DNA of 64,000 nucleotides from contig JBIOIY010000001.1 in assembly GCA_044450345.1 (NCBI GenBank), positions 1 to 64,000 of the forward strand, given 5' to 3'. Numbering within the stretch: position 1 is the stretch's first letter; each line of letters starts with the position of its first letter. This DNA comes from Thermodesulfovibrionales bacterium. Its GTDB lineage: Bacteria > Nitrospirota > Thermodesulfovibrionia > Thermodesulfovibrionales > UBA6898. The notes under the pieces were generated by a model. The model did not search any database. It was not told the origin of the DNA and saw nothing but the letters and a program-made list of their open reading frames with translations. A program made the translations under genes and the position numbers. Shown here piece after piece: positions 9,889 to 29,479 of the stretch.

Positions 9889-9922
9889 ATCTTCACCATT
9901 CCATTAACATCTCCACGATCAC

Positions 9923-10048
9923 GAAGGCAGGGGATGATAATCGAGCGGCTTCAATTTCTCGTATTGACCCGTCGCAGGCGGATCGAGAAATTGCCCTCGC
10001 AGGTCGCAACGCGACCGAGAATGAGAGAGATTATTATTCCCTGCCTTC
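9923..10048 (+). repeat. Three-way-junction repeat element, copy 1
   Basis: 20-bp closing stem 9923-9942/10029-10048 around core GAGCGGCTT-CAATTTCTCG..CGAGAAATTG-CC-CTCG..CGAG-AATGAGAGA shared with three other copies. Confidence 0.9.
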
Positions 10049-11080
10049 TTCATTAATCTTTTCAAGTCTCCCCACCCTCACGCCTACAAGCCGCACCCTC
10101 TTCTTGATCTCAATCCTCCCCAGACATTCAAAGGCCGCCCTTCTTATCTCCTCCAGGGAATCAGTTGTCTCCTGAAGCGTCTTCGCCCTGGTAACGGTCT
10201 TAAAATCGCTGAACCTGACCTTTACGGTTACATTCCTTCCCCTGTAGCCGGACCTCTTTAAATCAGCCACAACTGCCTTCGTCAATTCGGCGAGATTCCT
10301 TGCGAGCTCCTGCCAATTGTCAGTGTCCCTCTGAAAGGTGGTCTCCCGGCTGGACGATTTCGGCTCCCAATGGGTTACAAGCGGACTTTCGTCGATGCCC
10401 CGCGAGGATTCATAAAGAAATCTTCCATATGAGTTGCCGAAGGTCTCGACGAGTGTTTCGAGCGGCATACCAGCGATATCGCCGATCGTGTCGATGCCCA
10501 TGTCCCTGAGATGGGCATCGGTCTTCGGACCCACGCCCCAGAGTTTTCTCGCCGACAAAGGCCATATCCGCGCTTCAATATCGTCCCCGGCAATTATCGT
10601 GAGACCGTCGGGCTTCTGCATGTCCGAAGCTATCTTGGCAATCAGTTTATTGGGGCCGATGCCTATTGAACAGGTAAGTCCCGTCTCATTGAATATCCTT
10701 TTTTTTATCTCTCCGGAGATATCCGAAGAAGACCCTTCGACATCGGAAATATCGAGAAATGCCTCATCTATCCCGACATCTTCAACAAGGGGAGTAAATT
10801 GCCTGAGGGCATTTTTTATGATCTCGGATACGCGGGAATATTCCTCATAGTCGACGGACAGGAAGACCGCGTGCGGACAGAGCTTGTAGGCGGTCCTTAA
10901 AGGCATCGCCGAGTGTATCCCGAACTTCCGCGCCTCATAGGAGGCCGTGGAAACCACTCCCCTTTGCGTGGGGTCCCCTTCGCCTCCGATCACGACCGGC
11001 CTCCCCTTTAACTCCGGATGTCTATTCTGCTCGACCGCAGCAAAAAATGCATCCATGTCGATGTGAAGTATCCGCCTCAT
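10034..11080 (-). CDS. dinB: DNA polymerase IV (Y family)
   Basis: HIDMDAFFA, STASYEARKFG, IDEAFLD, SDMQKPDG. Confidence 0.96.
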   Translation of the reverse strand: MRRILHIDMDAFFAAVEQNRHPELKGRPVVIGGEGDPTQRGVVSTASYEARKFGIHSAMPLRTAYKLCPHAVFLSVDYEEYSRVSEIIKNALRQFTPLVEDVGIDEAFLDISDVEGSSSDISGEIKKRIFNETGLTCSIGIGPNKLIAKIASDMQKPDGLTIIAGDDIEARIWPLSARKLWGVGPKTDAHLRDMGIDTIGDIAGMPLETLVETFGNSYGRFLYESSRGIDESPLVTHWEPKSSSRETTFQRDTDNWQELARNLAELTKAVVADLKRSGYRGRNVTVKVRFSDFKTVTRAKTLQETTDSLEEIRRAAFECLGRIEIKKRVRLVGVRVGRLEKINEEGRE

Positions 11081-11086
11081 CTTAAC

Positions 11087-11184
11087 TCAGCGATCCGCTA
11101 TTAGCTGTCAGCCATCCGCAAAAGACAAAAGATAACCCTCATTCTTCAAGCTGAAAGCTGAGCGCCGAATGCTGATTGCTCATA
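11087..11184. repeat. Inverted pair of degenerate 7-bp tandem arrays
   Basis: Five TCAGCnn-like units (11087-11121) and five GCTGAnn-like units (11150-11184). Confidence 0.75.
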
Positions 11185-11946
11185 TTATTTCTTCTTCGCC
11201 TCGTCCCAGAGCGCGTCCATCTCCGCCAGGGTCATATCAGAAAGGGTTTTTCCACGGTCCGCTGCCGCCATCTCGATATATCTGAAGCGTGAGATGAACT
11301 TGCTTATCGTTTTCCTCAGCGCGTCTTCCGGGTTGATGCCTACGAACCTCGCTATGTTGACGAGCACAAAAAATATATCCCCAAGTTCATCCTCTATCTC
11401 CTCTGTTCTTTGTCGTTTCAGCGCCTCCCTGAACTCGGTGAGTTCCTCGTCGAGCTTCGGAAGGACATCATCAACCCTCTCCCAGTCGAATCCGACCCGC
11501 GACGCCCTGTCCTGAAGCCTGTGGGCACGCAGCAGCGAGGGAAGCTCCTTCGGGATTCCGTCGAGGACGGATTCACGTTGTTTACCCTCCCTCTTTTTCT
11601 GTTCCTCCCAATGGACAAGCACCTCCGCAGAGGTCTTGTAATCAGCATCACCGAAGACATGAGGGTGCCGTGCGACCATCTTTTTGCCTATAGTATCGAT
11701 GACGGCAGCCATATCGAACTCTTCCCTTTCCTTGGCGATCTGACACTGAAATACTACCTGGAAAAGGAGGTCGCCAAGCTCTTCCTTGATCGCCTCCGGT
11801 TTTTTTTCATCGATCGCCTCAAGCACTTCATATGCCTCCTCAACAAGAAACGGCTTCAGGGATTCCCTCGTCTGTTCCTTGTCCCAGGGACAGCCATTTT
11901 CTCCGCGGAGTGCGGACATTATCGCTATGAGTTCATTCAGATCCAT
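11185..11946 (-). CDS. mazG: Nucleoside triphosphate pyrophosphohydrolase MazG
   Basis: GCPWDKEQT, EELGDLL, RHPHVFG and a second ELGD domain. Confidence 0.96.
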   Translation of the reverse strand: MDLNELIAIMSALRGENGCPWDKEQTRESLKPFLVEEAYEVLEAIDEKKPEAIKEELGDLLFQVVFQCQIAKEREEFDMAAVIDTIGKKMVARHPHVFGDADYKTSAEVLVHWEEQKKREGKQRESVLDGIPKELPSLLRAHRLQDRASRVGFDWERVDDVLPKLDEELTEFREALKRQRTEEIEDELGDIFFVLVNIARFVGINPEDALRKTISKFISRFRYIEMAAADRGKTLSDMTLAEMDALWDEAKKK

Positions 11947-12020
11947 AGGGATTTATGATAAGTCGGTGGATAACGATTGTCAAACAACAGGATTCTAACC
12001 GGGGTTGTTCAAGTGTGCAA

Positions 12021-12127
12021 TATGAGACTCTATTTTCGCTCATTCTCGCTACGCTCCGAGGCAATTTCTCGACCCACCTGCGGAGGGTCAAGACGAGAAA
12101 TTGAAGCCGCTCAAATACAGTCCCACA
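12021..12127 (-). repeat. Three-way-junction repeat element, copy 2
   Basis: Reverse-complement copy of the core (TCGCTCATTCTCG..CGAGGCAATTTCTCG..CGAGAAATTGAAGCCGCTC on +) with its own 15-bp closing stem. Confidence 0.9.
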
Positions 12128-12359
12128 CCACTGTAAAGGAGATACAGGCAAGGAAGTCAGAGGCGGGGAAAACAGCTCGAAAAGCCTTTGTAGCGATACC
12201 TAGCGGCATCGGAAGCCAGGCAAAAACCACTAAAAATGGATAAAATCACCCGTGAAGGCTTGGATAGACAACAAATAATGCCATGATCAAATCTTATCGC
12301 CTCTAAAGGATTTGAGGGATGCTTTCCCCGCGTTATGGAACAATAGGGTAAAATAAAAT

Positions 12360-13484
12360 ATGGCTGATTTTCTTTATATCCATATCCCCTTCTGTATAAG
12401 GAAGTGCATTTATTGCGATTTCACATCCATCCCCTACGATCCGGCGCTGGTAGAAAGATATGGCGATGCGCTCTGTGCCGAGCTTCGTCTTTATAAAAAT
12501 ATTGCAGGGGAACTTAAGACCGTCTATATCGGCGGCGGGACGCCATCTCTCATGCAGGAAGATTTTTTCGAAAAGCTCTTCTGCCGAATCGGAGATGTCT
12601 TCACTATTTCACCTTCTGCCGAGATCACCATAGAAGCCAATCCGGGTACGATAAGCAGCTCAAAGATCAAGACCCTTCTTTCCCTTGGAGTAAACAGGGT
12701 CAGCATCGGAGTGCAGTCTCTGCATGACGAAGAACTCAGGACGCTGGGGAGGGTCCATACGTCCGCGGAGGCGGAGCGATCGGTCATGACCGTGAAAGAT
12801 CAGGGATTAGACAATATCTCCCTTGATCTTATGTATGGCATCCCGGGTCAGACTCTGGAGAGCTGGGGCGATACCCTTAAGAAGACTGCAGACCTCGCCC
12901 CTTCTCATATCTCTGCTTATGAACTGACGCCTGAGGAAAAAACTCCATTATCCGGTCTATTGAAGACCGGCAAGCTCATACTACCCGACGAAGGACTTGT
13001 TCTCGAAATGTATGACTCTGTGATAGACTTTCTTTCTTTAAACGGCTACGAGCATTACGAGATATCGAATTTCGCCCGGCCCGGCCTCAAATGCCGGCAC
13101 AATATAAATTACTGGGACAGAGGGGAATATATCGCCGTAGGCGCGGGGGCGCATTCCTTTCTGCGGGGTGTTCGGGCGAAAAATACGTCCGATGTCCGGG
13201 CATATATAGAGCGTCTGGAAGGGGGAATGCCGCCGGTTATAGAATCCGGCCGGGTTACACACAAGGAAGGAATGAGAGAGTTCATGTTCCTCGGCCTGAG
13301 GAAAAGAGAAGGGATCAACCTGAAAGAATGTGAGATCGCTGAGACCGACATGGCATCTTCGGCGGGCGACCTCATTGACCGGGGATATCTGGAGATCGTG
13401 AGTGGCCGGTTGAGACTCACAAGAAATGGGATTGTACTGTCGAACTCAGTGCTCGTGAGCCTTTTCGAACAATTACACCTTTAA
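12360..13484 (+). CDS. hemW: Radical SAM heme chaperone HemW (HemN-like)
   Basis: YIHIPFCIRKCIYCDF, GGGTPS, YEISNF, HNINYW. Confidence 0.92.
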   Translation: MADFLYIHIPFCIRKCIYCDFTSIPYDPALVERYGDALCAELRLYKNIAGELKTVYIGGGTPSLMQEDFFEKLFCRIGDVFTISPSAEITIEANPGTISSSKIKTLLSLGVNRVSIGVQSLHDEELRTLGRVHTSAEAERSVMTVKDQGLDNISLDLMYGIPGQTLESWGDTLKKTADLAPSHISAYELTPEEKTPLSGLLKTGKLILPDEGLVLEMYDSVIDFLSLNGYEHYEISNFARPGLKCRHNINYWDRGEYIAVGAGAHSFLRGVRAKNTSDVRAYIERLEGGMPPVIESGRVTHKEGMREFMFLGLRKREGINLKECEIAETDMASSAGDLIDRGYLEIVSGRLRLTRNGIVLSNSVLVSLFEQLHL

Positions 13485-13511
13485 CAGGCCGGGCGGTTAT
13501 CTGAGAAAAAC

Positions 13512-14063
13512 TTACGCGCTGCCGCTCGAACAGAAGAACCTCTCGAAATCCACCCCTATCAGGGCCGCAGCTTCCTTCCACCGGTCTGCAGACGGCATTT
13601 CGAAAACAATGTCAAAATTAAGGGGGGCCACGAGCCAGCCCTCCATCATCAACTCTTCCTCGAGCTGGTTAGGGGCCCAGCCGGAAAAGCCGAGCGCAAG
13701 CATATAGCGTTCAGGACCCCTTCCTTTTGCTATATCATGCAATATATCTTTGGAGGCGGTGACTGCAAGGGACTCCGTGATCTTGATAGCCCCATATTTT
13801 CCGTCAAAGGGGGAATAAATGACATATCCCTGCTCAGGCCTGACTGGGCCGCCATAGTATATGGGAATGTCCACACAAGTCTTTTTGATTTCAAAGGCGG
13901 GAAGGAGCGGCTTAAAGCTGTTCATAAGTATCTTGTTGATAATAAGCCCAAACGCCCCTTCTTTTGTGTGCTCGCACATGAGGACCACCGCCCGTTTGAA
14001 ATTAGGGTCTTCCATCCGGGGGACGGCGATAAGAAAATTTCCTGAGAGGTCCGTTATGTCCAT
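13512..14063 (-). CDS. YqgE/AlgH (DUF179) family protein
   Basis: LIA.P...DPNF.R.VV..CEH...GA.GLIINK, GGPV, G.SGW...QLE.E; ATG at 14063 preferred over TTG 14078. Confidence 0.93.
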   Translation of the reverse strand: MDITDLSGNFLIAVPRMEDPNFKRAVVLMCEHTKEGAFGLIINKILMNSFKPLLPAFEIKKTCVDIPIYYGGPVRPEQGYVIYSPFDGKYGAIKITESLAVTASKDILHDIAKGRGPERYMLALGFSGWAPNQLEEELMMEGWLVAPLNFDIVFEMPSADRWKEAAALIGVDFERFFCSSGSA

Positions 14064-14186
14064 GCCGCATCCGTACAATTACTATACCACAGAATTTTTG
14101 CAAACATATCCTGCCTATGCGCTTCCTGCTGCTTTTCATCTCACGCAACGAGATGTTACAATAACCGAAAAGTTGAGGAGAACGCT

Positions 14187-14900
14187 ATGCTTCCTTTTTT
14201 CCTTCAGGCCAAAACCATATCCGATGCATGGTTTCAACTTATTTACAACATATTCGACAATTCTTACGAACAAAAGATACAAAAAGGCTCCTTCGAAAAG
14301 GAGCAGTACCGCCTCCAGTATCCCGGCATCGCCGTGTTTATCGAACATCCGGACGAAGACATGGTCCCCGTAATGCCTCCCGGCTCGACAATCCCGGCGC
14401 CTACGACAAAAGAGTATATAGAAGATTATTTCGCCAATTATTTGATGGACCCCCAGCTCGCTGAAAACGAGACATACAAATATGCAAGCCGGATACATTA
14501 TCCGATGCCGAAGGGGGGAACGCAGCTGGAACGGGTGATGCAGATGCTCAAGGAGACCCCTCTTACGAACCAGGCGATAGTCGAGATCGGTTCACCGGAA
14601 GACCATGACGTATGCATTGGGAACGACGGCAAACTCGATCCGCCCTGCCTCCGTCTGCTCGATTTCAAGGCTGTCCCTTCCGGCGATTATCTTGCGCTTA
14701 CAGTCACATGCTACTTCCGTTCGTGGGACCTATGGGCGGGCTTTCCGACGAACCTCGGTGGGATCGAATTGCTTAAAGCCTACGTAGCAGGTGAAACGGG
14801 GTTGAAAAACGGCCCGATGTTCGTCTACAGCGCAGGCGCGCATATCTACGGATATCACGAAGAGATCGCAAGATTAAGGACATTAAAGCCAAAAAAGTAG
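14187..14900 (+). CDS. thyA: Short thymidylate synthase (ThyA-fold, archaeal-like subtype)
   Basis: DPPCLR catalytic Cys, YFRSWD, GFPTN, AHIY; RBS GAGGAG. Confidence 0.82.
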   Translation: MLPFFLQAKTISDAWFQLIYNIFDNSYEQKIQKGSFEKEQYRLQYPGIAVFIEHPDEDMVPVMPPGSTIPAPTTKEYIEDYFANYLMDPQLAENETYKYASRIHYPMPKGGTQLERVMQMLKETPLTNQAIVEIGSPEDHDVCIGNDGKLDPPCLRLLDFKAVPSGDYLALTVTCYFRSWDLWAGFPTNLGGIELLKAYVAGETGLKNGPMFVYSAGAHIYGYHEEIARLRTLKPKK

Positions 14901-15000
14901 GGGCGACCCGGTGGGTCGCCCTGTTTTTGAAGAAAGATTCCAGACAAGCCGGAATGACGGGCTACAAATTAAAAGAAGGCACGGCGCGCCGTGCCCCTAC
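14897..15000. repeat. Cluster of REP-like palindromes between convergent thyA and ileS; probable bidirectional terminator
   Basis: GTAG-GGGCGACCC-GGT-GGGTCGCCC (14897-14921, +); CGTCATTCCGG..CTGGAATC type (14936-14959, -); GTAG-G-GGCACGGC-GC-GCCGTGCC (14978-15000, -). Confidence 0.82.
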
Positions 15001-17825
15001 CCTTTCACTACCGGATAGCACCGTTCGCAGAGTTCGGGCTCGTCGGTAAAACTGCCCACCTTTGTGGACCAGTTCCAGCACCTCTGGCATTTTTCTCCCG
15101 GCGCCCTTTCGACTAAAACCTGCATGCCTTCGATATTTGCGCTTTCATAGGCCCCCGGTAATTTCTCTGCGCTGATCTCCGAAGCGGAAACGAGAAGCAA
15201 CGCAGGGAAAAAATCCAGGTAGGAAGAGACCAGGTCCCTGTATTTTTCAGGCAGATATATCTTCACCTTCGCCTCGAGCGGGTTGCCTATGAACTTCTCG
15301 GCCCTCTTGATCTCGAGCGCCTTGTTGATCTCGTTTCGAATATCGAGAAGGTCTTTCCATTTTTCTTCCAGCTCGTTGTCCAGGAATTCCTCTCTTACGA
15401 CCGGGAAATTGGAAAGAAATACCGACTCTCCACCCCGTAGGGGCGGGATCACCCCTTTTTGTACGGGCGGGGTCACCCCGCCCCTACTGATATATCCCCA
15501 GACCTCTTCGGCGGTAAAGGAAAGGACAGGGGCCATGATTCCCGTCAGCGTCGAGAGTATCTCTGACAGGACCCACTGGCTGGCCCTCCTTTCGGTCGAG
15601 TCTGTCTTTGCGGTATAGAGCCGGTCTTTCAGCACATCGAGATAGAAGGAACTCATGTCCACAACGCAGAAATTATGTAGCGAATGGAATACCTCGTGAA
15701 AATCAAAATTCTCATACGCACGGGTCACTCTCCCCACGAGGTTCTGAAGCCTGCTCATCGCCCATCTGTCGATCTCCTGAAGGTTGCCGCTATAATCCTG
15801 ATGATCGAAATCATGGAGGTTCCCGAGAAGGAACCTGCAGGTGTTCCGGATCTTCCTGTACGCCTCTGTCAGTCTGTTCAGTATCTCCTTCGAAATCCTG
15901 ATATCGTCTTTGTAGTCCTCCGCGGACACCCAGATGCGCAGGATCTCGGCGCCGAAGCCCTTGATGATCTCCTGGGGTGCGATGACGTTACCGAGGGACT
16001 TAGACATCTTCTTGCCGGCGCCATCGACGACAAACCCGTGTGTAAGGACGGTACGGTAGGGCGCACTGCCCCGGGCACCGACAGAAGTGAGCAGGGAACT
16101 CTGAAACCATCCCCTGTGCTGGTCGCTCCCTTCAAGGTACATATCGGCAGGCCAGGAGAGCCGTTCGTCCCTCTCAACCACGGCCGCATGGCTCACGCCG
16201 GAGTCGAACCATACGTCGAGGATGTCCATCTCCTTCGTGAAATCTTTCCCGCCGCATTTATTGCACGCATATCCCTTCGGCAGGAATTCCGCCGCATCTT
16301 TTATGAACCACACATCCGAACCGTGTTTTTCGATAAGGGAGGTGATACCGTCGAGGACGTCTTCGTCTTCGACAAAGCCGCCGCAGCCTGCGCAGCGTAT
16401 CATAGTGATCGGCACGCCCCAGCTCCGCTGCCTCGAAATACACCAATCCGGCCTGCTGAGCAACATCCCGTAAATCCTCTCCCTGCCCCACTTGGGAACC
16501 CATGCCACTTTGTCTATTTCATCGAGACATCTCTTACGGAGATCATTAAACTCGACCGAAATGAACCACTGCTCCGTGGCGCGGAATATGACCGCCTTCT
16601 TGCACCTCCAGCAGTGCGGGTATGAATGGGTGATCTTCTCTTCCCCTATGAGTGCGTTCCTGTTCTTCAGAGTATCTATGATCAATGCATTCGCCTTGAA
16701 AACAAACTGCCCTTCGAGGTCCCCTGCCTGCTTCGTAAACTTCCCCCTGTCATCAACAGGCGCATAGATATCGAGGCCGTATTTCAGTCCCACTTTGTAA
16801 TCGTCTTCGCCGTGGCCGGGCGCGATATGGACAACGCCAGTCCCGTCCTCGAGGGAGACAAAATCTGCCAGGACCGCCTTCGATTTTCTTGCGATGAAGG
16901 GATGGTCGGCAAGCATACCTTCGAGGTCTTTCCCGGTCACCTTCGCAAGAACCTTCGCGCCTATGCCTATCTTCTCCCTGAGCGCTTCGATCCTGCCTTC
17001 GGCGACAATGTACACCTCTTCGTCCTGGGCCACGGCAGCATACTCATAATCCGGATGAAAGGCTATCGCCAGGTTAGCCGGAAGCGTCCACGGAGTGGTG
17101 GTCCAGATAATAACAGATACTTTTTTCCCTTTCAGCGATGGAAGGTATTTGGAGAGATTGTCTTCGTCGACCCCGAACTTCACATAGACCGAGGGCGACT
17201 CCTTATCGGCATACTCAACCTCGGCCTCGGCCAGGGCAGTCACACAGGAGGGACACCAATGGACCGGTTTCTTTCCCTTGTATACGGATTTATTCCTTAC
17301 GAACTTAAAAAACTCCCTCACTATAGAGCTTTCGTAATCATACGTCATGGTGAGATAGGGTTTCTCCCAGTCACCGAATACGCCCAACCTCCTGAATTCG
17401 TCCCTCTGTATATCGACGAACTTGGCGGCATACTCCCTGCAAAGCTCTCTCTTTTCGATGATGTCTATCTTGTCCTTTTTATCCCCCAGGTTCTTGTCCA
17501 CCTGCAGTTCGATGGGAAGGCCGTGGCAGTCCCACCCCGGTACATAAGGGGCGTAAAAGCCCTTCATGGAATTGTATTTGACGATGATGTCCTTCAGTAT
17601 CTTGTTCAGGGCATGGCCCATATGGATATGGCCGTTTGCATAAGGAGGCCCGTCGTGGAGGATGTACTTTTTGTCGGATTTTTCTTTGTTGCCCTCCTGC
17701 ATCTTCCCGTATATCTTCACTTCCTCCCAATATTTCAGCATCTCGGGCTCCCTCTGAGCGAGGTTCGCCTTCATCGGAAAATCAGTCTGCGGAAGGTTCA
17801 ACGTGTCTTTATAATCTTTGGCCAT
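14997..17825 (-). CDS. ileS: Isoleucyl-tRNA synthetase (type 1)
   Basis: DGPPYANG, HMGH (HIGH), KMSKS, C-terminal CQRCW..CERC zinc finger; ATG 17825 preferred. Confidence 0.98.
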   Translation of the reverse strand: MAKDYKDTLNLPQTDFPMKANLAQREPEMLKYWEEVKIYGKMQEGNKEKSDKKYILHDGPPYANGHIHMGHALNKILKDIIVKYNSMKGFYAPYVPGWDCHGLPIELQVDKNLGDKKDKIDIIEKRELCREYAAKFVDIQRDEFRRLGVFGDWEKPYLTMTYDYESSIVREFFKFVRNKSVYKGKKPVHWCPSCVTALAEAEVEYADKESPSVYVKFGVDEDNLSKYLPSLKGKKVSVIIWTTTPWTLPANLAIAFHPDYEYAAVAQDEEVYIVAEGRIEALREKIGIGAKVLAKVTGKDLEGMLADHPFIARKSKAVLADFVSLEDGTGVVHIAPGHGEDDYKVGLKYGLDIYAPVDDRGKFTKQAGDLEGQFVFKANALIIDTLKNRNALIGEEKITHSYPHCWRCKKAVIFRATEQWFISVEFNDLRKRCLDEIDKVAWVPKWGRERIYGMLLSRPDWCISRQRSWGVPITMIRCAGCGGFVEDEDVLDGITSLIEKHGSDVWFIKDAAEFLPKGYACNKCGGKDFTKEMDILDVWFDSGVSHAAVVERDERLSWPADMYLEGSDQHRGWFQSSLLTSVGARGSAPYRTVLTHGFVVDGAGKKMSKSLGNVIAPQEIIKGFGAEILRIWVSAEDYKDDIRISKEILNRLTEAYRKIRNTCRFLLGNLHDFDHQDYSGNLQEIDRWAMSRLQNLVGRVTRAYENFDFHEVFHSLHNFCVVDMSSFYLDVLKDRLYTAKTDSTERRASQWVLSEILSTLTGIMAPVLSFTAEEVWGYISRGGVTPPVQKGVIPPLRGGESVFLSNFPVVREEFLDNELEEKWKDLLDIRNEINKALEIKRAEKFIGNPLEAKVKIYLPEKYRDLVSSYLDFFPALLLVSASEISAEKLPGAYESANIEGMQVLVERAPGEKCQRCWNWSTKVGSFTDEPELCERCYPVVKG
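15437..15487. repeat. REP-like palindromic insertion inside ileS coding sequence
   Basis: GTAGGGGCGGGATCACCCC-TTTTT-GTACGGGCGGGGTCACCCCGCCCCTAC, 51 nt, reading frame preserved. Confidence 0.8.
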
Positions 17826-17877
17826 AACGTACAAATTACCACTATGAAAGAATCGATGTCAAGTTAACCAAAAAAAT

Positions 17878-17989
17878 GTGCATATGAAGGAGGGAACCAT
17901 CTTTTCGCTCATTCTCGCTCTGCTCCGAGGCAATTTCTCGAAGATACGAGAAATTGAAGCCGCTCAAAGACGGTCCCCTCCTTATGCAC
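17878..17989 (-). repeat. Three-way-junction repeat element, copy 3
   Basis: Same core with both arms in short form; closing stem GTGCATATGAAGGAGGGAACCATCTTT/AAAGACGGTCCCCTCCTTATGCAC. Confidence 0.9.
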
Positions 17990-18197
17990 GATCCATTGCT
18001 TTTTTTTTGCTCTAAGACAGATGCGAAGATATGCGGAAAAAAACTTTATCTGCGCCACCTTTGTAAGAGCATTGTTACTGATAAAGGCAGATCCTTTAAG
18101 TAAAAGGGCAGATTACCTAAACATGCAAATTGCGACATTATAAAGTTTTTTGGAGCATGTCTTTGCATCAGCCGCATTCTTATTAAGACTTGGACTC

Positions 18198-18878: not shown

Positions 18879-18881
18879 AAA

Positions 18882-20432: not shown

Positions 20433-20457
20433 GATTTCCCCCCCCCGAATAAACGGA

Positions 20458-20829: not shown

Positions 20830-20849
20830 AATCTTGCAATTGCAAACAT

Positions 20850-20858
20850 ATTATAACA
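20850..20858 (-). promoter_or_regulatory. Extended -10 promoter element for acpS-nnr-pgeF
   Basis: TGTTATAAT on minus strand 20 nt upstream of acpS ATG. Confidence 0.6.
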
Positions 20859-21050
20859 ATGGAGTGGGGCGTGATGGAAAACAGCCATAGTCGAGGCTCC
20901 GCAGAGTCGCCGAAGACGTGCGACAAACCGTGCCGGATTACACAGAAGGTTATGTATGCGTTTACGTGAATCAGAATAATAATCTGCCGATTCTGTGGCG
21001 TTTTTCAGCATGTCCGACTCCATCTTGTTTGCAGCGTTAGGGATAAGTCC

Positions 21051-21782
21051 TCACTTCTTGCCTTTTGCCTCGGCCCTGTTCATCAATTCCTTCATCTCCC
21101 TCACGGCCCTTTCGAGGCCCACAAGCACGGCCCTCGAAATAATGCTGTGCCCGATATACAGCCCCCTGAGACCTTCCAGCTCCGCAATCCTGGAAACGTT
21201 GTAATAATTAAGGCCGTGGCCCGCGTTCACCTTAAGGCCTATGTCCATCGCCTTCTGCACGGCTCCGATGACCCTTGCGAGTTCTTTTTCCTGCCTTTTA
21301 CCTCTCTCGTCAGAGTAGCCGCCCGTATGTATTTCGACCATGTCGGCCCCGATCTCCTTCGAGGTCCCGACATCTTCGGGATCTGGATTAATAAAGAGGC
21401 TGACGCTGATGCCGTTGTCATGCAGGACCTTTACCGCCTGCCTTATGGCAGACCTGCCTCTCCTGACGTCGAGACCTCCCTCTGTAGTGAGTTCCTGCCT
21501 TTTTTCAGGGACGAGGGTCACAAGATCGGGAACTGTCTTGACCGCTATTTTCAGTATCTCCTTAGTAGCAGCCATCTCGAGATTGAGTTCGACCGGAACG
21601 AATTTCCTCAACAGTTCAAGGTCCCTGTCGCAGATATGTCTTCTGTCCTCACGAAGATGCACGGTAATCCCGTCTGCTCCGCCAAGCACCGCCAGCGTCG
21701 CTGCCATTACCGGATCAGGTTCTTTGCCAAGTCTCGCCTGTCTCAGCGTCGCCACATGATCAACGTTCACCCCTAGAATCAT
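21051..21782 (-). CDS. pdxJ: Pyridoxine 5'-phosphate synthase
   Basis: LGVNVDHVATLRQAR, HLREDRRHI, TTEGG, AGHGL. Confidence 0.97.
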   Translation of the reverse strand: MILGVNVDHVATLRQARLGKEPDPVMAATLAVLGGADGITVHLREDRRHICDRDLELLRKFVPVELNLEMAATKEILKIAVKTVPDLVTLVPEKRQELTTEGGLDVRRGRSAIRQAVKVLHDNGISVSLFINPDPEDVGTSKEIGADMVEIHTGGYSDERGKRQEKELARVIGAVQKAMDIGLKVNAGHGLNYYNVSRIAELEGLRGLYIGHSIISRAVLVGLERAVREMKELMNRAEAKGKK

Positions 21783-21808
21783 CCGGTCTCCATTCAATTT
21801 TTTTTTGT

Positions 21809-22255
21809 CTACGGTACCACGGTAACATCGTCAACCGACGAAGAGATGACGAAGACTTTTATATTATTGGTATCTTCATCCACGGGCAGCAAAAAAAAGC
21901 CCTTCCCGTCATTTTCCTTCCTCGACAGGAAGAAACCTTTCTCCCACGGCACCTTGCCGTCGAGAAACCCCACAAGCCGTTCCCCGTCTTTGAACTTCAC
22001 AAAGACCCTGTTGCCCGTCGGCTTCCTTATGCCATATGACTTTTTCTCCCTGTAGTCAAAGTCACCTTCGAAGGACTTTACAAAAAAAACCGCCTTCATA
22101 TCGTCTACCCTCAGCGTGCGGACCTCGTCCGTCTTCACCTCCCTCAGAACAACCTCATCTATGTCGGGTGAAAAAACTCTCAGATACCCCTTCAGTATGC
22201 TTCCGTCGTTGAATCTTACTACCGACCTTTCCTGAGCGCCTTTTTTTTTCCCCAT
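21809..22255 (-). CDS. Conserved hypothetical protein with internal duplication
   Basis: Intact ORF with RBS between hypE and pdxJ; two similar halves VVRFNDGSILKGY / VFVKFKDGERLVGF. Confidence 0.8.
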   Translation of the reverse strand: MGKKKGAQERSVVRFNDGSILKGYLRVFSPDIDEVVLREVKTDEVRTLRVDDMKAVFFVKSFEGDFDYREKKSYGIRKPTGNRVFVKFKDGERLVGFLDGKVPWEKGFFLSRKENDGKGFFLLPVDEDTNNIKVFVISSSVDDVTVVP

Positions 22256-22297
22256 ACATTACTCCCTTGTTACTCAAATTTCAGTATGACTGTTTCC

Positions 22298-23296
22298 TCA
22301 ACATATCCTGGGTAACTGGTCCCCGGAAAGCATGTCAATTATTCTAATACCACCGGCATTTGTTTTCAACAACACAGCCTCCCTCGGGGCCTCCGCGACT
22401 TCGCCGATAACGACCGTCTCTGCCCCTTCCGTTGTTTGCCTCATTTCTTCTGCCAGCCTGTCTGCAACGCCCGGATCAACGATGGCGATAAGAATACCTT
22501 CGTTCGCAATATAGAGAGGGTCGAGACCCAGGAGTTCGCAAGCGCCCCTGACCCCTGGTCTTACCTTAATCGAAGACTCTTGGACCATAATGCAATGTCC
22601 CGACTGCGACGCTATCTCCTTGAGGGTAGTCGCCACGCCTCCCCGGGTCGGGTCTCTCATCATGTGGATTTCTTTCGTCATGCCCGCCATACGCCTCACA
22701 AGTCGGTTCAGCGGCGCCACATCGCTCAGAAGAGGAGGGTCGAAGGATATACCGTTTCGCTCTGCCATGACCGCGACGCCGTGATTCCCTATGCTTCCGC
22801 TCAGGATCACTCTGTCCCCCGGTCTCACCTTCATCGGAGACAGATCGAGCCCATCTTCAACAACCCCAAATCCGGCTGTATTAATGAAGAGGCCGTCGGC
22901 CTTCCCCCTGTCAACAACCTTAGTATCGCCGGCAACTATCTTTATTCCCGCCTCCTCTGCCGCGGCCTTCATAGAATCCAGGACCCGTCCCAGATCATAG
23001 AACGGAAAGCCTTCCTCAATGATAAAACCCGCAGTCATATACATCGGGATCGCGCCCGAGACAGCGAGGTCGTTTACAGTACCGCAGACGGAAAGTCTGC
23101 CGATGTCGCCGCCGGGAAAGAAAAGAGGCGATACCACATACGAATCGGTCGTGATCGCTATCCTGCCTGATAACGCAGTTTCAATGACCGCCGAATCACT
23201 CAGGTTTTTCAGGTCGAATGCCGGGACGAAATAGTCATTTATCAGCTGATGCATCATTCGGCCGCCGCTTCCGTGCGCCAGTTGTATCAGCTCCAT
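22298..23296 (-). CDS. hypE: Hydrogenase maturation carbamoyl dehydratase HypE
   Basis: AHGSGG, GTVNDLA, MRDPTRGG, C-terminal LPRIC. Confidence 0.97.
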   Translation of the reverse strand: MELIQLAHGSGGRMMHQLINDYFVPAFDLKNLSDSAVIETALSGRIAITTDSYVVSPLFFPGGDIGRLSVCGTVNDLAVSGAIPMYMTAGFIIEEGFPFYDLGRVLDSMKAAAEEAGIKIVAGDTKVVDRGKADGLFINTAGFGVVEDGLDLSPMKVRPGDRVILSGSIGNHGVAVMAERNGISFDPPLLSDVAPLNRLVRRMAGMTKEIHMMRDPTRGGVATTLKEIASQSGHCIMVQESSIKVRPGVRGACELLGLDPLYIANEGILIAIVDPGVADRLAEEMRQTTEGAETVVIGEVAEAPREAVLLKTNAGGIRIIDMLSGDQLPRIC

Positions 23297-23303
23297 GAAT
23301 GTC

Positions 23304-24377
23304 TCATATCTTTATTTTCCCTACTGCTTTGTATTTAAAATAGGCCGCGCAGCTCCCCTCGGAACTCACCATGCACGGCCCCACAGGCCTGTCGGGCGTG
23401 CACGCCTTTCCGAAGAGTTTGCAGTCAGTCGGGACCTTGACCCCCTTGAGGACCTCTCCGCACGAACACGCCGTAGCATGGTCCTCTGCCTCAGGAACGT
23501 CAAGTGAGAAGACAGACCTAATGTCCCTATGCCTGAATTCTTCTCTCAATCTCAGGCCGCTCATCGGGATGGCGCCGATCCCCCTCCAATTCGCATCGTC
23601 AGGTTCAAAACATTTATTCAATACGGCGACCGCTTTTGGGTTCCCCTCCATTCTTACGACTCTTTTGTACTGGATCTCCACTTCGGCCCTTCCCGACGCG
23701 AGCTGCTCAAGGATCATCTGTATTCCGGAAAGGATATCCCCGGCGTCAAAGCCGGTGATGACGGAAGACTTCTTGTAGTCCGACGCCATAAACCCATAAG
23801 GCACGCTCCCGATCACCGTGCTTACATGTCCCGGCAAAATAAAACCGTCCACCCTCACTTCGCCTGAATCGAGGAGTGCCTTCAGGGCAGGGGGAACGGT
23901 CTTATGGACGGAATAGATATAAAAATTGCTCACCCCTCGTCTCTCTGCCTCGAGTATGGTCCCGGCAACGGAAGGAGATGTGGTTTCAAAGCCCGTGGCA
24001 AAGAAAACGACCTTTTTGTCGCTGTTGTCTTCCGCGATCTTAAGCGCATCGAGGGGAGAGTAGACCACCCTGACGTCGCCCCCTTCGGCCTTGGCATTAA
24101 AGAGGGATTTATTACTGCCTGGGACCCTCATCATGTCCCCGAAGGTTGCAAGGGCAACCCCTTTTCTCATCGATATAGCTATAGCCGCATCGACATCTTT
24201 TATCGCCGTAACACAGACCGGACAGCCGGGCCCGCTGAGAAGCGTAATTCCTTCAGGAAGAAGGTCTCTTATGCCCAGTCTAAAGATAGCCACTGTGTGG
24301 GTCCCGCAGACCTCCATCAGCCTCACGGGCCTTCCAATAGAATCCATAAGCCGCTTGAGGGTATCACCCATATTCAT
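23304..24377 (-). CDS. hypD: Hydrogenase maturation protein HypD
   Basis: MEVCGTHT, GPGCPVC, GFETT, PGHVS, GPCMVSSEGSCAA. Confidence 0.97.
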   Translation of the reverse strand: MNMGDTLKRLMDSIGRPVRLMEVCGTHTVAIFRLGIRDLLPEGITLLSGPGCPVCVTAIKDVDAAIAISMRKGVALATFGDMMRVPGSNKSLFNAKAEGGDVRVVYSPLDALKIAEDNSDKKVVFFATGFETTSPSVAGTILEAERRGVSNFYIYSVHKTVPPALKALLDSGEVRVDGFILPGHVSTVIGSVPYGFMASDYKKSSVITGFDAGDILSGIQMILEQLASGRAEVEIQYKRVVRMEGNPKAVAVLNKCFEPDDANWRGIGAIPMSGLRLREEFRHRDIRSVFSLDVPEAEDHATACSCGEVLKGVKVPTDCKLFGKACTPDRPVGPCMVSSEGSCAAYFKYKAVGKIKI

Positions 24378-24380
24378 GTG

Positions 24381-26759
24381 TTATTCTTTCACCCCATCTT
24401 TGAGCCTCTCCCTCAGTATATAAGCCTGCCCGAGAGAGATGCCTGCATCGTTACTGGGAACGAGTTCATTTACGTACACCTCTATTCCCTCGGCCCTCAA
24501 ATAGTATACTATCCTTCTGAGGAGATATGAATTCTGGAACACGCCGCCGCTCAGAACTGCCTTCTTGATGTTGTGCGACGCCGATAGTTTGACTGCAGTC
24601 CTTAAGACCGCCGTCGCGACAGTATTATGGAATTTCGTCGCCGTCACCCTCTTGTCAGCTTGGTTCCCGAGGTCCTTCAGTATACCCAATATCGCAGCAC
24701 TGAAGTCTATCCCAATCACTTCCTTAAATCTTATATCTACGGGATAATCATCGTCCAGCCCGTCCAGCACAAGCGATTCCAGGGCCATGGCCGCCTCGCC
24801 CTCGAAGGTATTTACGTCGCAGACTCCCATCAGCGCAGACACTGCGTCGAAAAGCCTTCCCGCTCCGGAAGAGAGGGGAGAGAAATCCCTCATTCCCGCA
24901 ATCTTTATGATGTTTTCGATCCTTTCCCTGCCGTATTTTTCGACAAAGCCGGTCTGTCCGATATACTCCCAGACCTGTTCCCCGACCGCCTCCAACAGAT
25001 ACGCCAGAGATATCCTCCAGGGCTCCTTCACCGCCATTTCGCCGCCCGGCAGAGGTATGTAGTCAAGGTGTCCCACCCGTTTGAACCCCGTTGTGTCTGC
25101 GATCAGAAACTCTCCCCCCCAGAGCGCTCCGTCATCTCCATAGCCTGTGCCGTCGAATGAAACTCCTATGACCTTCTCCTTTATCCCCCTCTCCGCCATT
25201 ACGGACGCGATATGGGCGTAATGATGCTGGACCGGATATTTCTTGATCCCTTCCTGACTCAATGCCCACCGTGATGAGAGGTACGCCGGATGAGGGTCGT
25301 AGGCGATCGCCTCCGGCGCAGCCCTGTAAACCGCCTTGAGGTTCTTCAGGGTCTCTTGAAAAAAGCGGAGGGTCTCATAATTCTCCATATCACCTATATG
25401 CTGACTCGGTACCGCATACCTGCCCTTCGTGAGGGTGAAGGTGTTCTTCAAATCCGCGCCGCATCCCAGGACCTCCGGCCCCTCCTCATGTAACGGAATG
25501 GGATCGGGAACATACCCGCGCGACCTCCTGATAAAAAAAACCGGCATTTCCCCTTGAGACCACTCCCCCCGGCCCAACCCTGCCTCCGCCCTGTTTTCAC
25601 TGACCTTCACCACGGAGTCGTCGACCCTCATGAATATCCCCCGGTCATGGAGCAGGAAGGCATCGGCGATGCCTGAAAGCTTTGCGACCGCCTCGTCGTT
25701 GTCGATCACAATCGGTTCTTCGGAGATATTTCCGCTGGTCATAACGAGCGCATTGAAGTGGGGACCTCCGCCATCCACTCCCCGGTGAGGAAAGGCGAAA
25801 GGGCGGTAAAAAAGCAGATAGTGAAGCGGTGTATACGGGAGCATAAAACCTGTATATCTGTTGTGTGGAGAGACATCACCTGCAAGACATGCATTATTCT
25901 TTTTAGCGAGAAGCAGGACCGGCCTTTTTTCAGAAACCAGCAGGGATTCTTCTTTATCGGAAACATGACAGAACCCACGCACCGCGCCGATGTCGGGAGC
26001 CATTACGGCAAAGGGTTTATTGTTTTTTCTCTTCCTTTGTCGGAGCGTCGAGACGGCCTCTTCGTTTGAGGCATCGCAGGCGATATGAAAGCCTCCGAGC
26101 CCTTTGATGGCGATGATGTATCCTTCCTTGAGCAGTCTGATCGTCTCTTTGAAGGGGTCTTCTTTCTCATCGACAACTAAGCCCTGCTTAAAGACCTTCA
26201 GTTCGACCCCGGGGCCGCATCTGGGGCACGCATTAGGCTGGGCATGGAAACGCCTGTTCCCGGGATCGCCGTATTCAGCCTCGCACTCAGGACACATCCG
26301 AAAGACATCCATAGTCGTATGTCCGCGGTCGTAAGGCACGGACTTCGTGATCGAATACCTCGGCCCGCAATTCGTGCAATTGATAAAGGGGTAGAGAAAA
26401 CGCCTGTCCCCTGGGTCGAACAGTTCATGAATGCAATCTGCACAGACCGATGCATCCGGCGATACGAGCGTAAAGCTGCCTGTCCCGAGGCTTCCTTTGA
26501 TAGAGAACTCGTTGTAACCGGTGAACTCGCACGGCGCGATATCCACGTTTAGAATCTTCGAAAGCGGCGGACTGTCTTTCCTAAGTCTCTCCAGGAAGGT
26601 ACTGAGGTCCCCGCCCTCGGCAGTAATAAAAACACCTTCAGCGGTGTTCGCGATAAACCCCTTGACCTCAAGTTCCCTTGCAAGATTATAGACAAAGGGC
26701 CTGAAGCCGACCCCCTGGACCTTACCCTTGACTGATATATTCAGACATTCCATGATCAT
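24381..26759 (-). CDS. hypF: Carbamoyltransferase HypF
   Basis: VQGVGFRPFV acylphosphatase domain, two zinc fingers, QHHYAH, DGTGYG, NDAGISLGQ. Confidence 0.97.
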   Translation of the reverse strand: MIMECLNISVKGKVQGVGFRPFVYNLARELEVKGFIANTAEGVFITAEGGDLSTFLERLRKDSPPLSKILNVDIAPCEFTGYNEFSIKGSLGTGSFTLVSPDASVCADCIHELFDPGDRRFLYPFINCTNCGPRYSITKSVPYDRGHTTMDVFRMCPECEAEYGDPGNRRFHAQPNACPRCGPGVELKVFKQGLVVDEKEDPFKETIRLLKEGYIIAIKGLGGFHIACDASNEEAVSTLRQRKRKNNKPFAVMAPDIGAVRGFCHVSDKEESLLVSEKRPVLLLAKKNNACLAGDVSPHNRYTGFMLPYTPLHYLLFYRPFAFPHRGVDGGGPHFNALVMTSGNISEEPIVIDNDEAVAKLSGIADAFLLHDRGIFMRVDDSVVKVSENRAEAGLGRGEWSQGEMPVFFIRRSRGYVPDPIPLHEEGPEVLGCGADLKNTFTLTKGRYAVPSQHIGDMENYETLRFFQETLKNLKAVYRAAPEAIAYDPHPAYLSSRWALSQEGIKKYPVQHHYAHIASVMAERGIKEKVIGVSFDGTGYGDDGALWGGEFLIADTTGFKRVGHLDYIPLPGGEMAVKEPWRISLAYLLEAVGEQVWEYIGQTGFVEKYGRERIENIIKIAGMRDFSPLSSGAGRLFDAVSALMGVCDVNTFEGEAAMALESLVLDGLDDDYPVDIRFKEVIGIDFSAAILGILKDLGNQADKRVTATKFHNTVATAVLRTAVKLSASHNIKKAVLSGGVFQNSYLLRRIVYYLRAEGIEVYVNELVPSNDAGISLGQAYILRERLKDGVKE

Positions 26760-26852
26760 GCACTTTCATCCGCTCGCTCTATTATACCCGAACAGAAACA
26801 CAGGAGGCGGAGGAAACGCATGTGAGTCCGCCTATCTGTTATAATAACGTCC

Positions 26853-27164
26853 ATGAAAACCAAGGACCTGACAGAGAAAGAAAGGTTATGTATTTCCTGC
26901 CAGAAGTGCTGCAAAGAACTGTTCATTTATACCCATCCGGTCCTGTACAGCTGCCCGGCCGGGACAATAGTCGATTTTTACAAGGCCCGGGGGTTCGATG
27001 TGAACAGGCTGGAAGAAGACGCGATAATCCTTTCCTTCAAGCACACCTGTCCCCATCTCACTTCTGGGGGATGCGACATTTACGATAACCGGCCTCAGGC
27101 GTGCGCGGATTACTCAGGGATAGAGGACTTCGGTCAAGACTGCCTCTGGTCGACGCTGAAATAG
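26853..27164 (+). CDS. YkgJ-family (CxxCxxCC) cysteine cluster protein
   Basis: CISCQKCC, CPHL...GCDIYDNRPQAC. Confidence 0.9.
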   Translation: MKTKDLTEKERLCISCQKCCKELFIYTHPVLYSCPAGTIVDFYKARGFDVNRLEEDAIILSFKHTCPHLTSGGCDIYDNRPQACADYSGIEDFGQDCLWSTLK

Positions 27165-27188
27165 GAAAGGCCCTCAAGAAAACACCGC

Positions 27189-28310
27189 ATGCCACCGCCC
27201 GATATTAACCGGAAACGCCTTGTCGACACATTCTTGCAACTCCTGCGAATCAACTCCCCTTCGTTTCAGGAAGGAGAGATGGGTAAAGTACTGGCAAGAA
27301 AGTTAGAGGAGGCGGGATGCGAAGTCGAAATACAGAGATATGACGGCTCTTTCAATATCATAGCGAGAAAAGAGGGTTTCAACAGGGCGCCTGCACTTAT
27401 AGTTAGTGCCCATATGGACACGATAGAACCTACCGAGGGAATTGAATTCAGCGTTGACGACGTCGAGATAAGATCCACGGGCAGGACTGTTTTAGGTGCC
27501 GACGACAAGAGCGCCATAGCCCAGATATTGGAGGCCCTGACTGTTCTCCATGAACAAATGATCCCTCACGGAAGACTCGAAATCGTTTTCACTTCGGCAG
27601 AGGAAAAGGGACTCTGCGGCGCAAAAAACCTCGACTTCTCGCGGCTCAAAAGCAGGCACGCCATAGTGCTCGACGCATCAGGAGACGTGGGGTGTCTTGT
27701 CGTCGCCGCACCCACCCATCTTACATATGAAATGCGCATTATCGGCAAGTCGGCACATGCCGGCATAGAACCGGAAAAAGGCATTAATGCGATAAGGATC
27801 GCATCCATGATCATTGCGTCTGTCCCCGACGGAAGGATAAGCAGAGAAACCACCGCAAACATCGGGATCATCCATGGGGGCACGGCAACTAACGTGGTGC
27901 CCAGGGAAACGGTCATCCATGGTGAGTTGAGGAGCCGTGACGCTACCGAACTTCAAGGCAGTAAGAGGCGTATTTTTGAAACAGCATTGGTCTTAGCGGA
28001 GCAGAACGGGGGGAAGATTATCATCTCTGAAGAAGAGGAATACAGGGCTTTTACTATTGACAAGGGAGATCCGCTCCTCACGTATCTTGCCGGAGTTATC
28101 AGCAAATGCGGCATAGACCCGGTCTTCATCGAAACAGGCGGGGGCTCGGACGCCAACGTATTTAATGCACATGGAATAAAGGCGGTCAATGTCACGAACG
28201 GGATGAGGCAGGTCCATTCAAGCGACGAACATATTTTTCTCCGGGACCTCTATAGCGGCTGCTGGGTCGTGCTGCAGGCGATAACTGACTTCGAGGGGTT
28301 TACTCCGTAG
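27189..28310 (+). CDS. M20 family peptidase (peptidase T-like)
   Basis: AHMDT, LGADDK, EE, AHAG..PEKG, GGGSD, VHS. Confidence 0.92.
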   Translation: MPPPDINRKRLVDTFLQLLRINSPSFQEGEMGKVLARKLEEAGCEVEIQRYDGSFNIIARKEGFNRAPALIVSAHMDTIEPTEGIEFSVDDVEIRSTGRTVLGADDKSAIAQILEALTVLHEQMIPHGRLEIVFTSAEEKGLCGAKNLDFSRLKSRHAIVLDASGDVGCLVVAAPTHLTYEMRIIGKSAHAGIEPEKGINAIRIASMIIASVPDGRISRETTANIGIIHGGTATNVVPRETVIHGELRSRDATELQGSKRRIFETALVLAEQNGGKIIISEEEEYRAFTIDKGDPLLTYLAGVISKCGIDPVFIETGGGSDANVFNAHGIKAVNVTNGMRQVHSSDEHIFLRDLYSGCWVVLQAITDFEGFTP

Positions 28311-28337
28311 GCCGGTACTCACTTGCCCCCACCCTGC

Positions 28338-29144
28338 TTATCCTATTTCTTCTATGAGCTTTCCGGCGCAATCCGGGCATATACCATGGGTAAATTTCGT
28401 ATCGGAATGTTCGCACACGTAAGCCTCGACCTTTTTCCAATACCCCTGGTCGTCGCGGATCTTCTTGCACCATGCGCACATGGGGAGCAGTCCGCTTAAT
28501 TTCTTGACATTCGAAAGGGCTTCCTGAAGCTCCTTTATCAGCCGCTCCTTTTCCGCTCCGGTACGCTTTCTCTCGGCTATCTCCTTTTGAAGCTGTTCAT
28601 TCATCGAGGTAATTTCTGAGGTACGCTCACGGACGAGCCATTCCAGATGGTTCCTGTGTACATTCAGCTCCTCCTCTGCCAGTTTGCGGTTCGTAATGTC
28701 CCTGACTATATGGATCAGACCTATCACCCTTCCGTCATCATCAAGCCTCGGGATCGCCCGTATCTCGATATGCATGTTCAGATGCGGTTCGAACATCTCA
28801 AAGGTCTTGGTCTTCCCGCTACCGAAACACTTGCAGCTCGGACACCCAACGGGCGGACTGTCGCTTCCGTGGTAGTATTCATAACATTTCGCCTTCGAAG
28901 CCAGAACAGGCAGGCCCAGTATCTTTTCAGCGGCCTTATTCGCATGGATAATAGTAAAGTCACTGTCATGAATGGTGACCATGTCCGTTATCGTATCGAA
29001 GATTTCATGCCAGTCCTGTTCGGCCGGGAAACAACGTTCAGCGGTTTTTTGCTTTGTCTCCAGACGGTCGATTTCCATAAAACAATCCCGAATGCTTCCG
29101 ATGCGTTCCGGCGGTCCTTCTATTGTTTTATCTCTGACCTTCAT
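28338..29144 (-). CDS. PAS-domain protein with coiled coil and C-terminal Cys-rich metal-binding tail
   Basis: PAS ending RDIT; coiled coil; LLPMCAWCKKIRDD...THGICPDC. Confidence 0.85.
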   Translation of the reverse strand: MKVRDKTIEGPPERIGSIRDCFMEIDRLETKQKTAERCFPAEQDWHEIFDTITDMVTIHDSDFTIIHANKAAEKILGLPVLASKAKCYEYYHGSDSPPVGCPSCKCFGSGKTKTFEMFEPHLNMHIEIRAIPRLDDDGRVIGLIHIVRDITNRKLAEEELNVHRNHLEWLVRERTSEITSMNEQLQKEIAERKRTGAEKERLIKELQEALSNVKKLSGLLPMCAWCKKIRDDQGYWKKVEAYVCEHSDTKFTHGICPDCAGKLIEEIG

Positions 29145-29309
29145 GGCGGTTCACCTCCCTTATTTATGCGTCCTGTTTGCACCCCGCGTCCAAATCATAT
29201 ACTCCGCAGATTAAAAGCAGATTAAGGGACCATGAAATTTTCTTAACGGGGGAGACGTTATATCCTGTAGATGCAAATGCGGACAGAACATTAGACACAT
29301 TAATCACGA

Positions 29310-29447
29310 ATGCAGCGCGGGGCTGTTTTTGAGCGGATTCAATTACTCGTATTGACCCGTCCTGTATTGCTTGGCGGGTCGAGGAATTGCCCTCGCAGGT
29401 CGCCCTAGCGACCGAGAATGAGCGAAAAGACAAGTCCCACGCTGCAT
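29310..29447 (+). repeat. Three-way-junction repeat element, copy 4
   Basis: Core GAGCGGATT-CAATTACTCG..CGAGGAATTG-CC-CTCG..CGAG-AATGAGCGA closed by ATGCAGCGCGGGGCTGTTTTT/AAAGACAAGTCCCACGCTGCAT. Confidence 0.9.
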
Positions 29448-29479
29448 AGTTTAGAAGCGGCGGACGAGATTTGAAAAGG

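Follow-up and report, generated by a model that had tools for sequence, protein, structure and literature searches.

Four branched hairpins in a Thermodesulfovibrionales genome are probably old insertions of a structured family of miniature inverted-repeat transposable elements

Within the first 64,000 nucleotides of contig JBIOIY010000001.1 (assembly GCA_044450345.1; hereafter the window), from a Thermodesulfovibrionales bacterium, four intergenic copies of one element fold into a long hairpin (P1) with a three-way junction at its tip. The letters of the junction recur from copy to copy, and the sequence of the hairpin does not. What kind of element keeps its centre in this way, and how did it come to stand at four places? 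An original prediction, made from the letters of the window, offered two answers: a structure-selected non-autonomous mobile element, or a family of non-coding RNAs or ribozymes. The first is the one borne out by comparison with related genomes, through filled and empty sites, sets of near-identical copies with terminal inverted repeats, target duplications, covariation and strand-specific pairing. We consider it likely that the four copies are old insertions of a non-coding family of miniature inverted-repeat transposable elements (MITEs) with a conserved junction core, confined, as far as searched, to a single class of Nitrospirota, the one to which this genome belongs, which we take to be Thermodesulfovibrionia in the GTDB. 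The genome that carries the window, a 3.19-Mb draft, is called G000 here, and other G numbers denote the genomes compared with it.

Re-reading the sequence recovers all four copies at the positions first given, with the same variants of the two arms. The 19-nt pattern of the 5′ junction matches the window four times against 0.08 expected, a count reached in 0 of 100 shuffles, and every copy folds more stably than each of 200 shuffles (z of −6.0, −3.6, −6.3 and −6.2 for copies 1 to 4). A covariance model (R1), built on a seed of 17 copies of one length class with the three-way-junction structure set by hand, finds 35 matches in G000, each 105-186 bp long. Of 41 relatives, 24 have matches, with 0 to 74 per genome inside one genus; across the class, 52 of 151 genomes and 40 of 88 genera contain at least one. 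A sample of the phylum gives 8 matching genomes out of 151, all but one of them from the class; the sole out-of-class match (G201:C215:98-239) stands at a contig end, where a binning artefact or a transfer is possible. The junction pattern has no match in viral contigs. The exact pattern of one subfamily, type A, is found at several loci each in Candidatus Sulfobium mesophilum, which NCBI files under Nitrospirota, in Nitrospiraceae bacterium Ngb-4 and in an uncultured Nitrospiraceae metagenome-assembled genome. In agreement with the original prediction, which recognised no riboswitch or ribozyme consensus, no Rfam family matches: the whole window gives 0 matches and the copies none at E up to 10, and among five further loci the only match is Parabacteroides-1, at 24.7 bits against a threshold of 93.4 and overlapping a copy in part. 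Literature searches, in which the Sulfobium genome paper was among the sources, found no published description of the family.

Orthologous sites show that the family is inserted DNA, gained and lost between related species. In G005 and G006, the orthologous gene junction lacks the whole insert of copy 1 (9889..10048, plus strand; R1 placement 9919-10052, 87.1 bits), and G004 keeps a 3′ remnant only. The hairpin itself occupies 9923-10048, so the ends first assigned to the elements were too short: about 34 further 5′ bases (9889-9922, plus strand) are also missing from the empty sites and resemble a decayed terminal repeat, ATTCCATTAACATCT. The core (9943..10028, plus strand) reads GAGCGGCTT, P2, CC, P3 (CTCG-CAG-GTCGC..GCGAC-CGAG) and AATGAGAGA. 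On the left, the insert abuts TTCAT at 9884..9888, which overlaps the start codon of Dtd (minus strand), and on the right the same letters at 10049..10053; the two form a candidate 5-bp target duplication, of which the empty site retains one TTCAT in G005 and TTCA at the alignment break in G006. The claim that the elements lack a target-site duplication is thus doubtful for copy 1.

Copies 2 to 4 have the placements that R1 gives them. Copy 2 (12012..12136, core 12036-12112, minus strand; 122.4 bits) lies in a divergent spacer between MazG-like and HemN-like genes and is missing when the same spacer is compared in G004, G003 and G005; the spacer of G006 is occupied by a member of another subfamily, oppositely oriented. 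Copy 3 (17881..17989, core 17905-17965, minus strand; 109.6 bits) is the shortest form, with a 6-nt loop closing P2, and is followed on its 3′ side by a T-run and then the ileS promoter region. G000, G004 and G006 each carry an element in this spacer, with differing P1 and P2. Copy 4 (29307..29450, core 29331-29425, plus strand; 75.7 bits) is diverged, with GAGCGGATT and one A/G mismatch in P2, and its stretch is present only in G000, being missing from the aligned spacer of G004, G003, G002 and G005. Terminal inverted repeats are degenerate at best in all four copies.

Beyond the window, G000 and G004 each carry, at one locus where they are about 90% alike, an element not present in the other. 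Within the same order but in a different family, G163 and G116 lack two of the elements of G093, the flanks being 87-95% alike. The second of these sites is a clean insertion, with TTCAT on both sides against two empty sites; it is shell-less (that is, without the terminal inverted repeats described below) and adds about 14 and 11 bases outside P1. The comparison of orthologous loci that accompanied the original prediction as a check therefore finds filled and empty sites alternating between close relatives. Contigs assembled from four soil, peat and river DNA runs, compared with window positions 9600-29599, cross copy 1 intact; no joint in them leaves out an element, and a few joints between copies resemble repeat-mediated joins.

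Recent bursts in two genomes reveal what a fresh element looks like. G168 carries about 55 elements, and aligned copies are near-identical over about 205 bp, P1 included. They are bounded at both ends by TTAGCCCAYWTTATTCA in inverted orientation (57 + 57 matches, against 4 and 5 for a control pattern), with TA at both ends in most of 10 aligned copies. At least six near-identical copies in G020 sit within a different shell of inverted repeats, CCCAAATCCACCAT / ATGGTGGATTTGGG, and a 4-5 bp direct repeat flanks 5 of the 5 copies for which both flanks are available. One core is therefore common to two unrelated inverted-repeat shells. Because P1 is identical within a burst, it must remain constant on movement, and the variety seen in the window reflects age and divergence together with compensation. 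The original description of P1, as different in each copy yet always paired, thus stands for the pairing and falls for the freedom of its sequence, since P1 is identical in the recent burst and has a family consensus of approximately gnagggnAtngtnTTt directly 5′ of GAGCGG.

The shell of the G168 type, more or less decayed, can also be traced in G000 and its named relatives, where 16 of 65 copies have the 5′ motif, in 15 of these 16 at a fixed distance of 12-17 nt, and 15 of 65 have the 3′ motif. The core is flipped relative to this asymmetric shell between the copies of G168 and those of the G000 group. In G129, 24 copies have no flanks in common, yet score 38.6-102 bits. G168 also contains mini shells without a hairpin, their two terminal repeats meeting at the point that the palindrome would otherwise occupy; two were read (L208:101-153 and L209:93-146), differing by one T at the joint, and the spacing of matches implies at least five. 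The 5′ motif was compared by eye only with sigma-70, sigma-54, IHF and DnaA sites, none of which fits well, and these candidates were dropped. A second MITE of G168, about 235 nt long, lies inside the terminal repeat of two elements (L207:~160-400, on G168:C53, and the 3′ flank of L185); its ends are CTGTCCAAAATA / TATTTTGGACAG, with a flanking 9-nt repeat, TTATTCATA.

The three-way junction is supported by covariation. The tip of a young element reads GAGCGGYTT, P2, CC, P3 (CTCGGAG..CGAG) and AATGAGCGA, on the long hairpin P1. The seed of 17 copies shows double-sided changes at 16 of 20 P1 pairs, and it is weak on P2 and P3 because one subfamily dominates it. The weaker matches of G000 have quite different P2 sequences, with the complement always present (CTTTTGCC, CTTTTATCCCGAT, CAGCGGGCT and TATTTTGTCG). 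An independent set of 70 copies from six genomes other than G000 bears out the covariation on which the original prediction depended: 94.5% of cells pair, against 70.0% after shuffling and 39-50% with slid partners, and 32 of 37 pairs change on both sides, with 0 of 500 shuffles reaching any of these measures. The alignment was fitted to the model, so that the counts lean to the structure, a concern limited by the slid controls and by the ungapped P1. Covariation extends to 18 of 18 outer P1 pairs and 9 of 9 P2 pairs. The base of P3, CTCG/CGAG, is nearly fixed, and shows one compensated double change, within a recent burst. With the two bursts collapsed (56 copies), the unpaired letters of the junction are 0.91-1.0 conserved: GA..GG.TT after P1, C before P3, GAG within P3, and AATGA..GA before P1′. 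RNAalifold, applied to 17 type-A copies, proposed an alternative in which TTTCTCG pairs with CGAGAA before AATGAG, which we set aside because other subfamilies change P2 and not that partner. Several elements also have a 20-nt perfect palindrome, CCTGCCTGCCGGCAGGCAGG, nested after P3 or within P2, which makes a four-way junction; in G000 these are C17:27809-27969 (L072), C1:119760-119915, C2:42048-42191, C9:54668-54823 and C17:23894-24046.

Pairing is also specific to one strand. That the non-Watson-Crick positions of P1 are mostly G-T on the element strand was noticed in the four window copies, and it holds in 50 copies (91 G.T against 20 A.C) and in 70 further copies (105 against 18, or 82 against 18 without one G.T-rich column). 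When copies are divided into four classes by the orientation of their flanking genes, all four show the excess (G.T:A.C of 48:7, 15:2, 19:5 and 19:4), and a mutation bias tied to transcription or replication is therefore no explanation. Of 135 copies, the top strand, on which the element was originally read, is more stable than its complement in 125 under RNA parameters and in 122 under DNA parameters. Founder copies may have passed on part of the G.T excess, so that selection is shown over the history of the family and not necessarily at each site. GC skew, taken as an indicator of replication direction, places the top strand on the C-rich strand in 21 of 32 copies; skew and gene strand are inseparable, since skew follows the gene strand in 27 of the 32.

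These observations fit a life cycle in which a young element, made up of short terminal inverted repeats (the shell), the long hairpin P1 and the three-way junction at its tip, would be mobilised in trans by transposases whose cuts are staggered. At least two such enzymes are implied by the two shells with their different flanking repeats, and the junction is therefore unlikely to be the recognition site of one transposase. After insertion, the shell would decay, and the hairpin and junction would stay, with compensatory changes; decay of the one and compensation of the other would explain why the window copies look bare, each with its own stem. The junction would be the selected part, most likely as a folded single strand, RNA or DNA, that is recognised by a conserved factor of the host or of the element.

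Several points count against so simple a history of insertion and decay. The first of the two G093 sites cannot be read cleanly as an insertion plus a duplication, and in the G168 copies the terminal TA may belong to the inverted repeat and not to a duplication. Decay of the shell is deduced, not directly seen, for most copies, given the low share that still have a motif (16/65 and 15/65). G000 and its named relatives contain no near-identical full-length paralogues, the likeness between paralogues stopping within P1, and thus give no hint that the family is active there now. A transposase cutting duplex DNA leaves the better folding of one strand without explanation. Furthermore, the freshest burst is in G168, a genome with no match to Y1_Tnp, DDE_3, DDE_Tnp_1, TnpB or rve, and no autonomous element came to light, and 0 of 25 fetched transposase loci carry the terminal repeat of either shell.

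Beside the window copies, the statement that no transposase is present holds for the 12 open reading frames scanned, the extent of that scan. DDE_3 has no match in G001, G004, G006, G168, G129, G163, G093 or G162, DDE_Tnp_1 and TnpB have none in G168 or G129, and rve has none in G168, a 96% complete draft in about 150 contigs. Nor does G168 contain a transposase-sized pair of TTAGCCCAYWTTATTCA ends, although repeats are perhaps lost from draft genomes; one pair 2.6 kb apart belongs to two elements around nucleotidyltransferase, sugar-transferase and VanZ-like genes. The IS630 copies of G000 were considered as parents and rejected, as their ends differ from the shells. Thus, transposases of the Y1/HUH, IS630, IS4/5, TnpB and rve kinds do not track the element, with the proviso that, most genomes being drafts, absence of a transposase is not proven.

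If the element persists after its shell has gone, the host may be what keeps it. On this account, the hairpin and junction are retained after insertion as a site for a conserved host factor or as an intergenic terminator or insulator, and the MITE shells are only the vehicle. We regard this as possible, though doubtful; it overlaps with the insertion-and-decay account, the difference being who benefits. The old copies without a shell do keep their junction, and in 4 to 5 of 6 orthologous pairs the element has changed less than the non-coding sequence around it. The C10/L020 pair has unalignable flanks, yet one element is about 93% alike and the core of the other about 97% alike, with six compensated P1 pairs. 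Such a pattern fits purifying selection on the junction and the pairing, and later replacement or gene conversion could also produce it. Some orthologues decay nonetheless, among them L014 (64 bits, against 107 for its partner) and the G004 remnant of copy 1, and two complete genomes of the same genus are without any copy.

Gene context is similarly divided on host retention. The neighbours of the window copies are housekeeping genes, encoding Dtd, a DinB-like polymerase, MazG, a HemN-like protein, IleRS, a YfiH-like protein and an MBL-fold protein. From crude open reading frame calls, and for copies between co-directional genes, 15 copies are antisense and 6 sense in G000 and 30 and 13 in six other genomes (45 to 19 in total), counts that are not fully independent because some sites are orthologous between genomes. 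Antisense copies mostly end, on their 3′ side, 0-35 nt from a stop codon, and the hairpin is preceded by A-rich tracts (3.14 A per 8 bases, where the background is 27%; at least five A in 26 of 133 copies), both in favour of retention. Against this, orientation is biased and not fixed, and the runs that a regular terminator would have are rare: TTTT stands within 8 nt downstream of 3 copies out of 133, and AAAA, its equivalent for the other strand, upstream of 15 of them. Head-to-head pairs of elements recur.

More tentatively still, the junction may be a functional structured nucleic acid, such as a class-specific binding platform or a catalytic RNA or DNA motif, which is carried by unrelated MITE shells, or hops between them, and outlives them. 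Bacterial MITEs with conserved folds are already known, and here the usual conservation is reversed, with ends that decay around a branched centre that is near-invariant. The constancy of that centre across the whole class and in two carriers points to recognition of a folded single strand. Were this reading of the junction true, the junction would be the selected unit and transposons only its carriers.

A related possibility, which we think unlikely, is that the hairpin and junction are themselves the mobile unit and insert at the centres of palindromes, the two kinds of small inverted-repeat shell among them. One core at the centre of two unrelated shells, its flipping relative to the asymmetric shell between G168 and the G000 group, the mini shells of G168 without a hairpin and the G129 copies without a shell are all what this would predict. 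The one-T difference between the two minis, however, is just as well explained by independent deletions of a perfect palindrome, and the clean G093 insertion brings with it the bases outside P1 and the 5-bp repeat. The outer P1 arms are also unrelated to the flanks: they match their own flanks no better than those of other copies (means of 6.9-7.3 of 12 matches, within 1 standard deviation of shuffled pairings), by which a P1 copied from the target was also rejected.

Independent small RNA genes or a family of self-cleaving ribozymes would account for the covariation, for G.U-type wobbles on one strand and for invariant junction letters, all typical of structured RNA, but we find this improbable. 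Over 80 upstream bases of 135 copies no positional signal of a conserved promoter exceeds 0.19 bits per position, and the copies, besides having no regular terminator and no Rfam match above threshold, stand in both orientations relative to genes and act as insertions with duplications. Resemblance to the hammerhead, the k-turn and attC was considered and dropped, the computed comparison being with Rfam only.

Least probable, and in our opinion very unlikely, is a single-stranded DNA element moved by an HUH nuclease (Y1, RAYT-like), in the manner of repetitive extragenic palindromic (REP) sequences and REPINs or of relics of IS200/IS605: strand-specific pairing, conserved unpaired letters in a hairpin and the antisense bias of 45 to 19 would agree with it, but the HUH partner that the original prediction proposed is missing where it would be needed, with 0 matches to Y1_Tnp in the copy-rich G001 (74 copies), G004 (36) and G168 (about 55) and 6 matches each in G003 and G005, copy-free genomes of the same genus. 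Nor are inverted-repeat ends and 4-5 bp direct repeats known as features of the HUH mechanism; these, like the TA flanks, set the family apart from IS200/IS605 and REP elements.

How, then, does the family of old, decayed insertions compare with described systems? We class it as a new structured MITE family, short, non-coding and dispersed, with terminal inverted repeats, target duplication and filled and empty sites, and the one usual companion of a MITE that was not found is a parent insertion sequence with the same ends. The nearest described case is bcr1 of the Bacillus cereus group, which is a dispersed element of about 155 bp, uneven between related strains, with 5-bp direct repeats and compensatory changes that maintain a cruciform-like fold, and for which transcription is reported (Delihas, 2011; PMC3184786). 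The two are alike in size class, dispersal, uneven distribution, 5-bp direct repeats and compensated fold. They differ in phylum and sequence, and the Nitrospirota family has at its tip a three-way junction with near-invariant unpaired letters, and a core that occurs in two unrelated inverted-repeat shells and outlives its ends. Bacterial MITEs as a group, among them Correia, ERIC/RU-1 and RUP, are characterised in the same paper as shorter than about 400 bp, without a transposase gene, and with terminal inverted repeats, target duplications and long stem-loops (Delihas, 2011; PMC3184786). The Nitrospirota family shares their size, lack of a transposase gene, inverted repeats, target duplications and long stem-loop fold, but no parent insertion sequence was found for it, and its centre is best conserved, with ends lost as it ages.

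Two further systems invite comparison. REP sequences and REPINs, with their RAYT transposases, are dispersed intergenic hairpins that persist at orthologous loci, frequently close to the ends of genes; in contrast, the Nitrospirota element is much larger, with a branched tip, shells and direct repeats, and does not co-occur with Y1_Tnp. The attC sites of integrons are folded single strands of variable sequence, sometimes with a branched tip, that are recognised by structure. The Nitrospirota copies are instead single, in both orientations and among housekeeping genes, with no one-way arrays (the integrase itself was not searched for), and it is the sequence of their junction that is fixed, not its shape alone. 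In practice, the element breaks assemblies of these soil and sediment bacteria, marks their intergenic regions and can mislead searches for regulatory RNAs, and its hundreds of covarying copies offer a natural data set on the upkeep of structure in mobile DNA.

The spacers around the elements contain other conserved or repeated stretches. Upstream of copy 3, a AAAGGTGGCGCAGATAAAGTTTTTTTCCGCA block (window ~18031-18063, minus strand) is kept in G004 and G006, where the rest of the spacer is not, and similar blocks stand upstream of two other G000 copies. Between copy 3 and the start of ileS (17830-17880, minus strand), TTGACA and a TATAGT-like box, kept in G004 and G006, are probably the ileS promoter. 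A GC-rich palindrome of about 20-22 nt, GGGGCG(T/C)AT..AT(A/G)CGCCCC, is found repeatedly in several genomes, directly behind stop codons, with sites at L130:~1146-1166 (G000:C22), in the copy-2 spacer of G004 and G003, and at G004:C9 ~45603-45630; by appearance it is a distinct repeat family, REP-like or terminator-like. Beside copy 2, the stretches 12158-12218 and 12287-12349 of the window belong to another dispersed repeat family, with more than 30 matching places in G005 and a few in G002.

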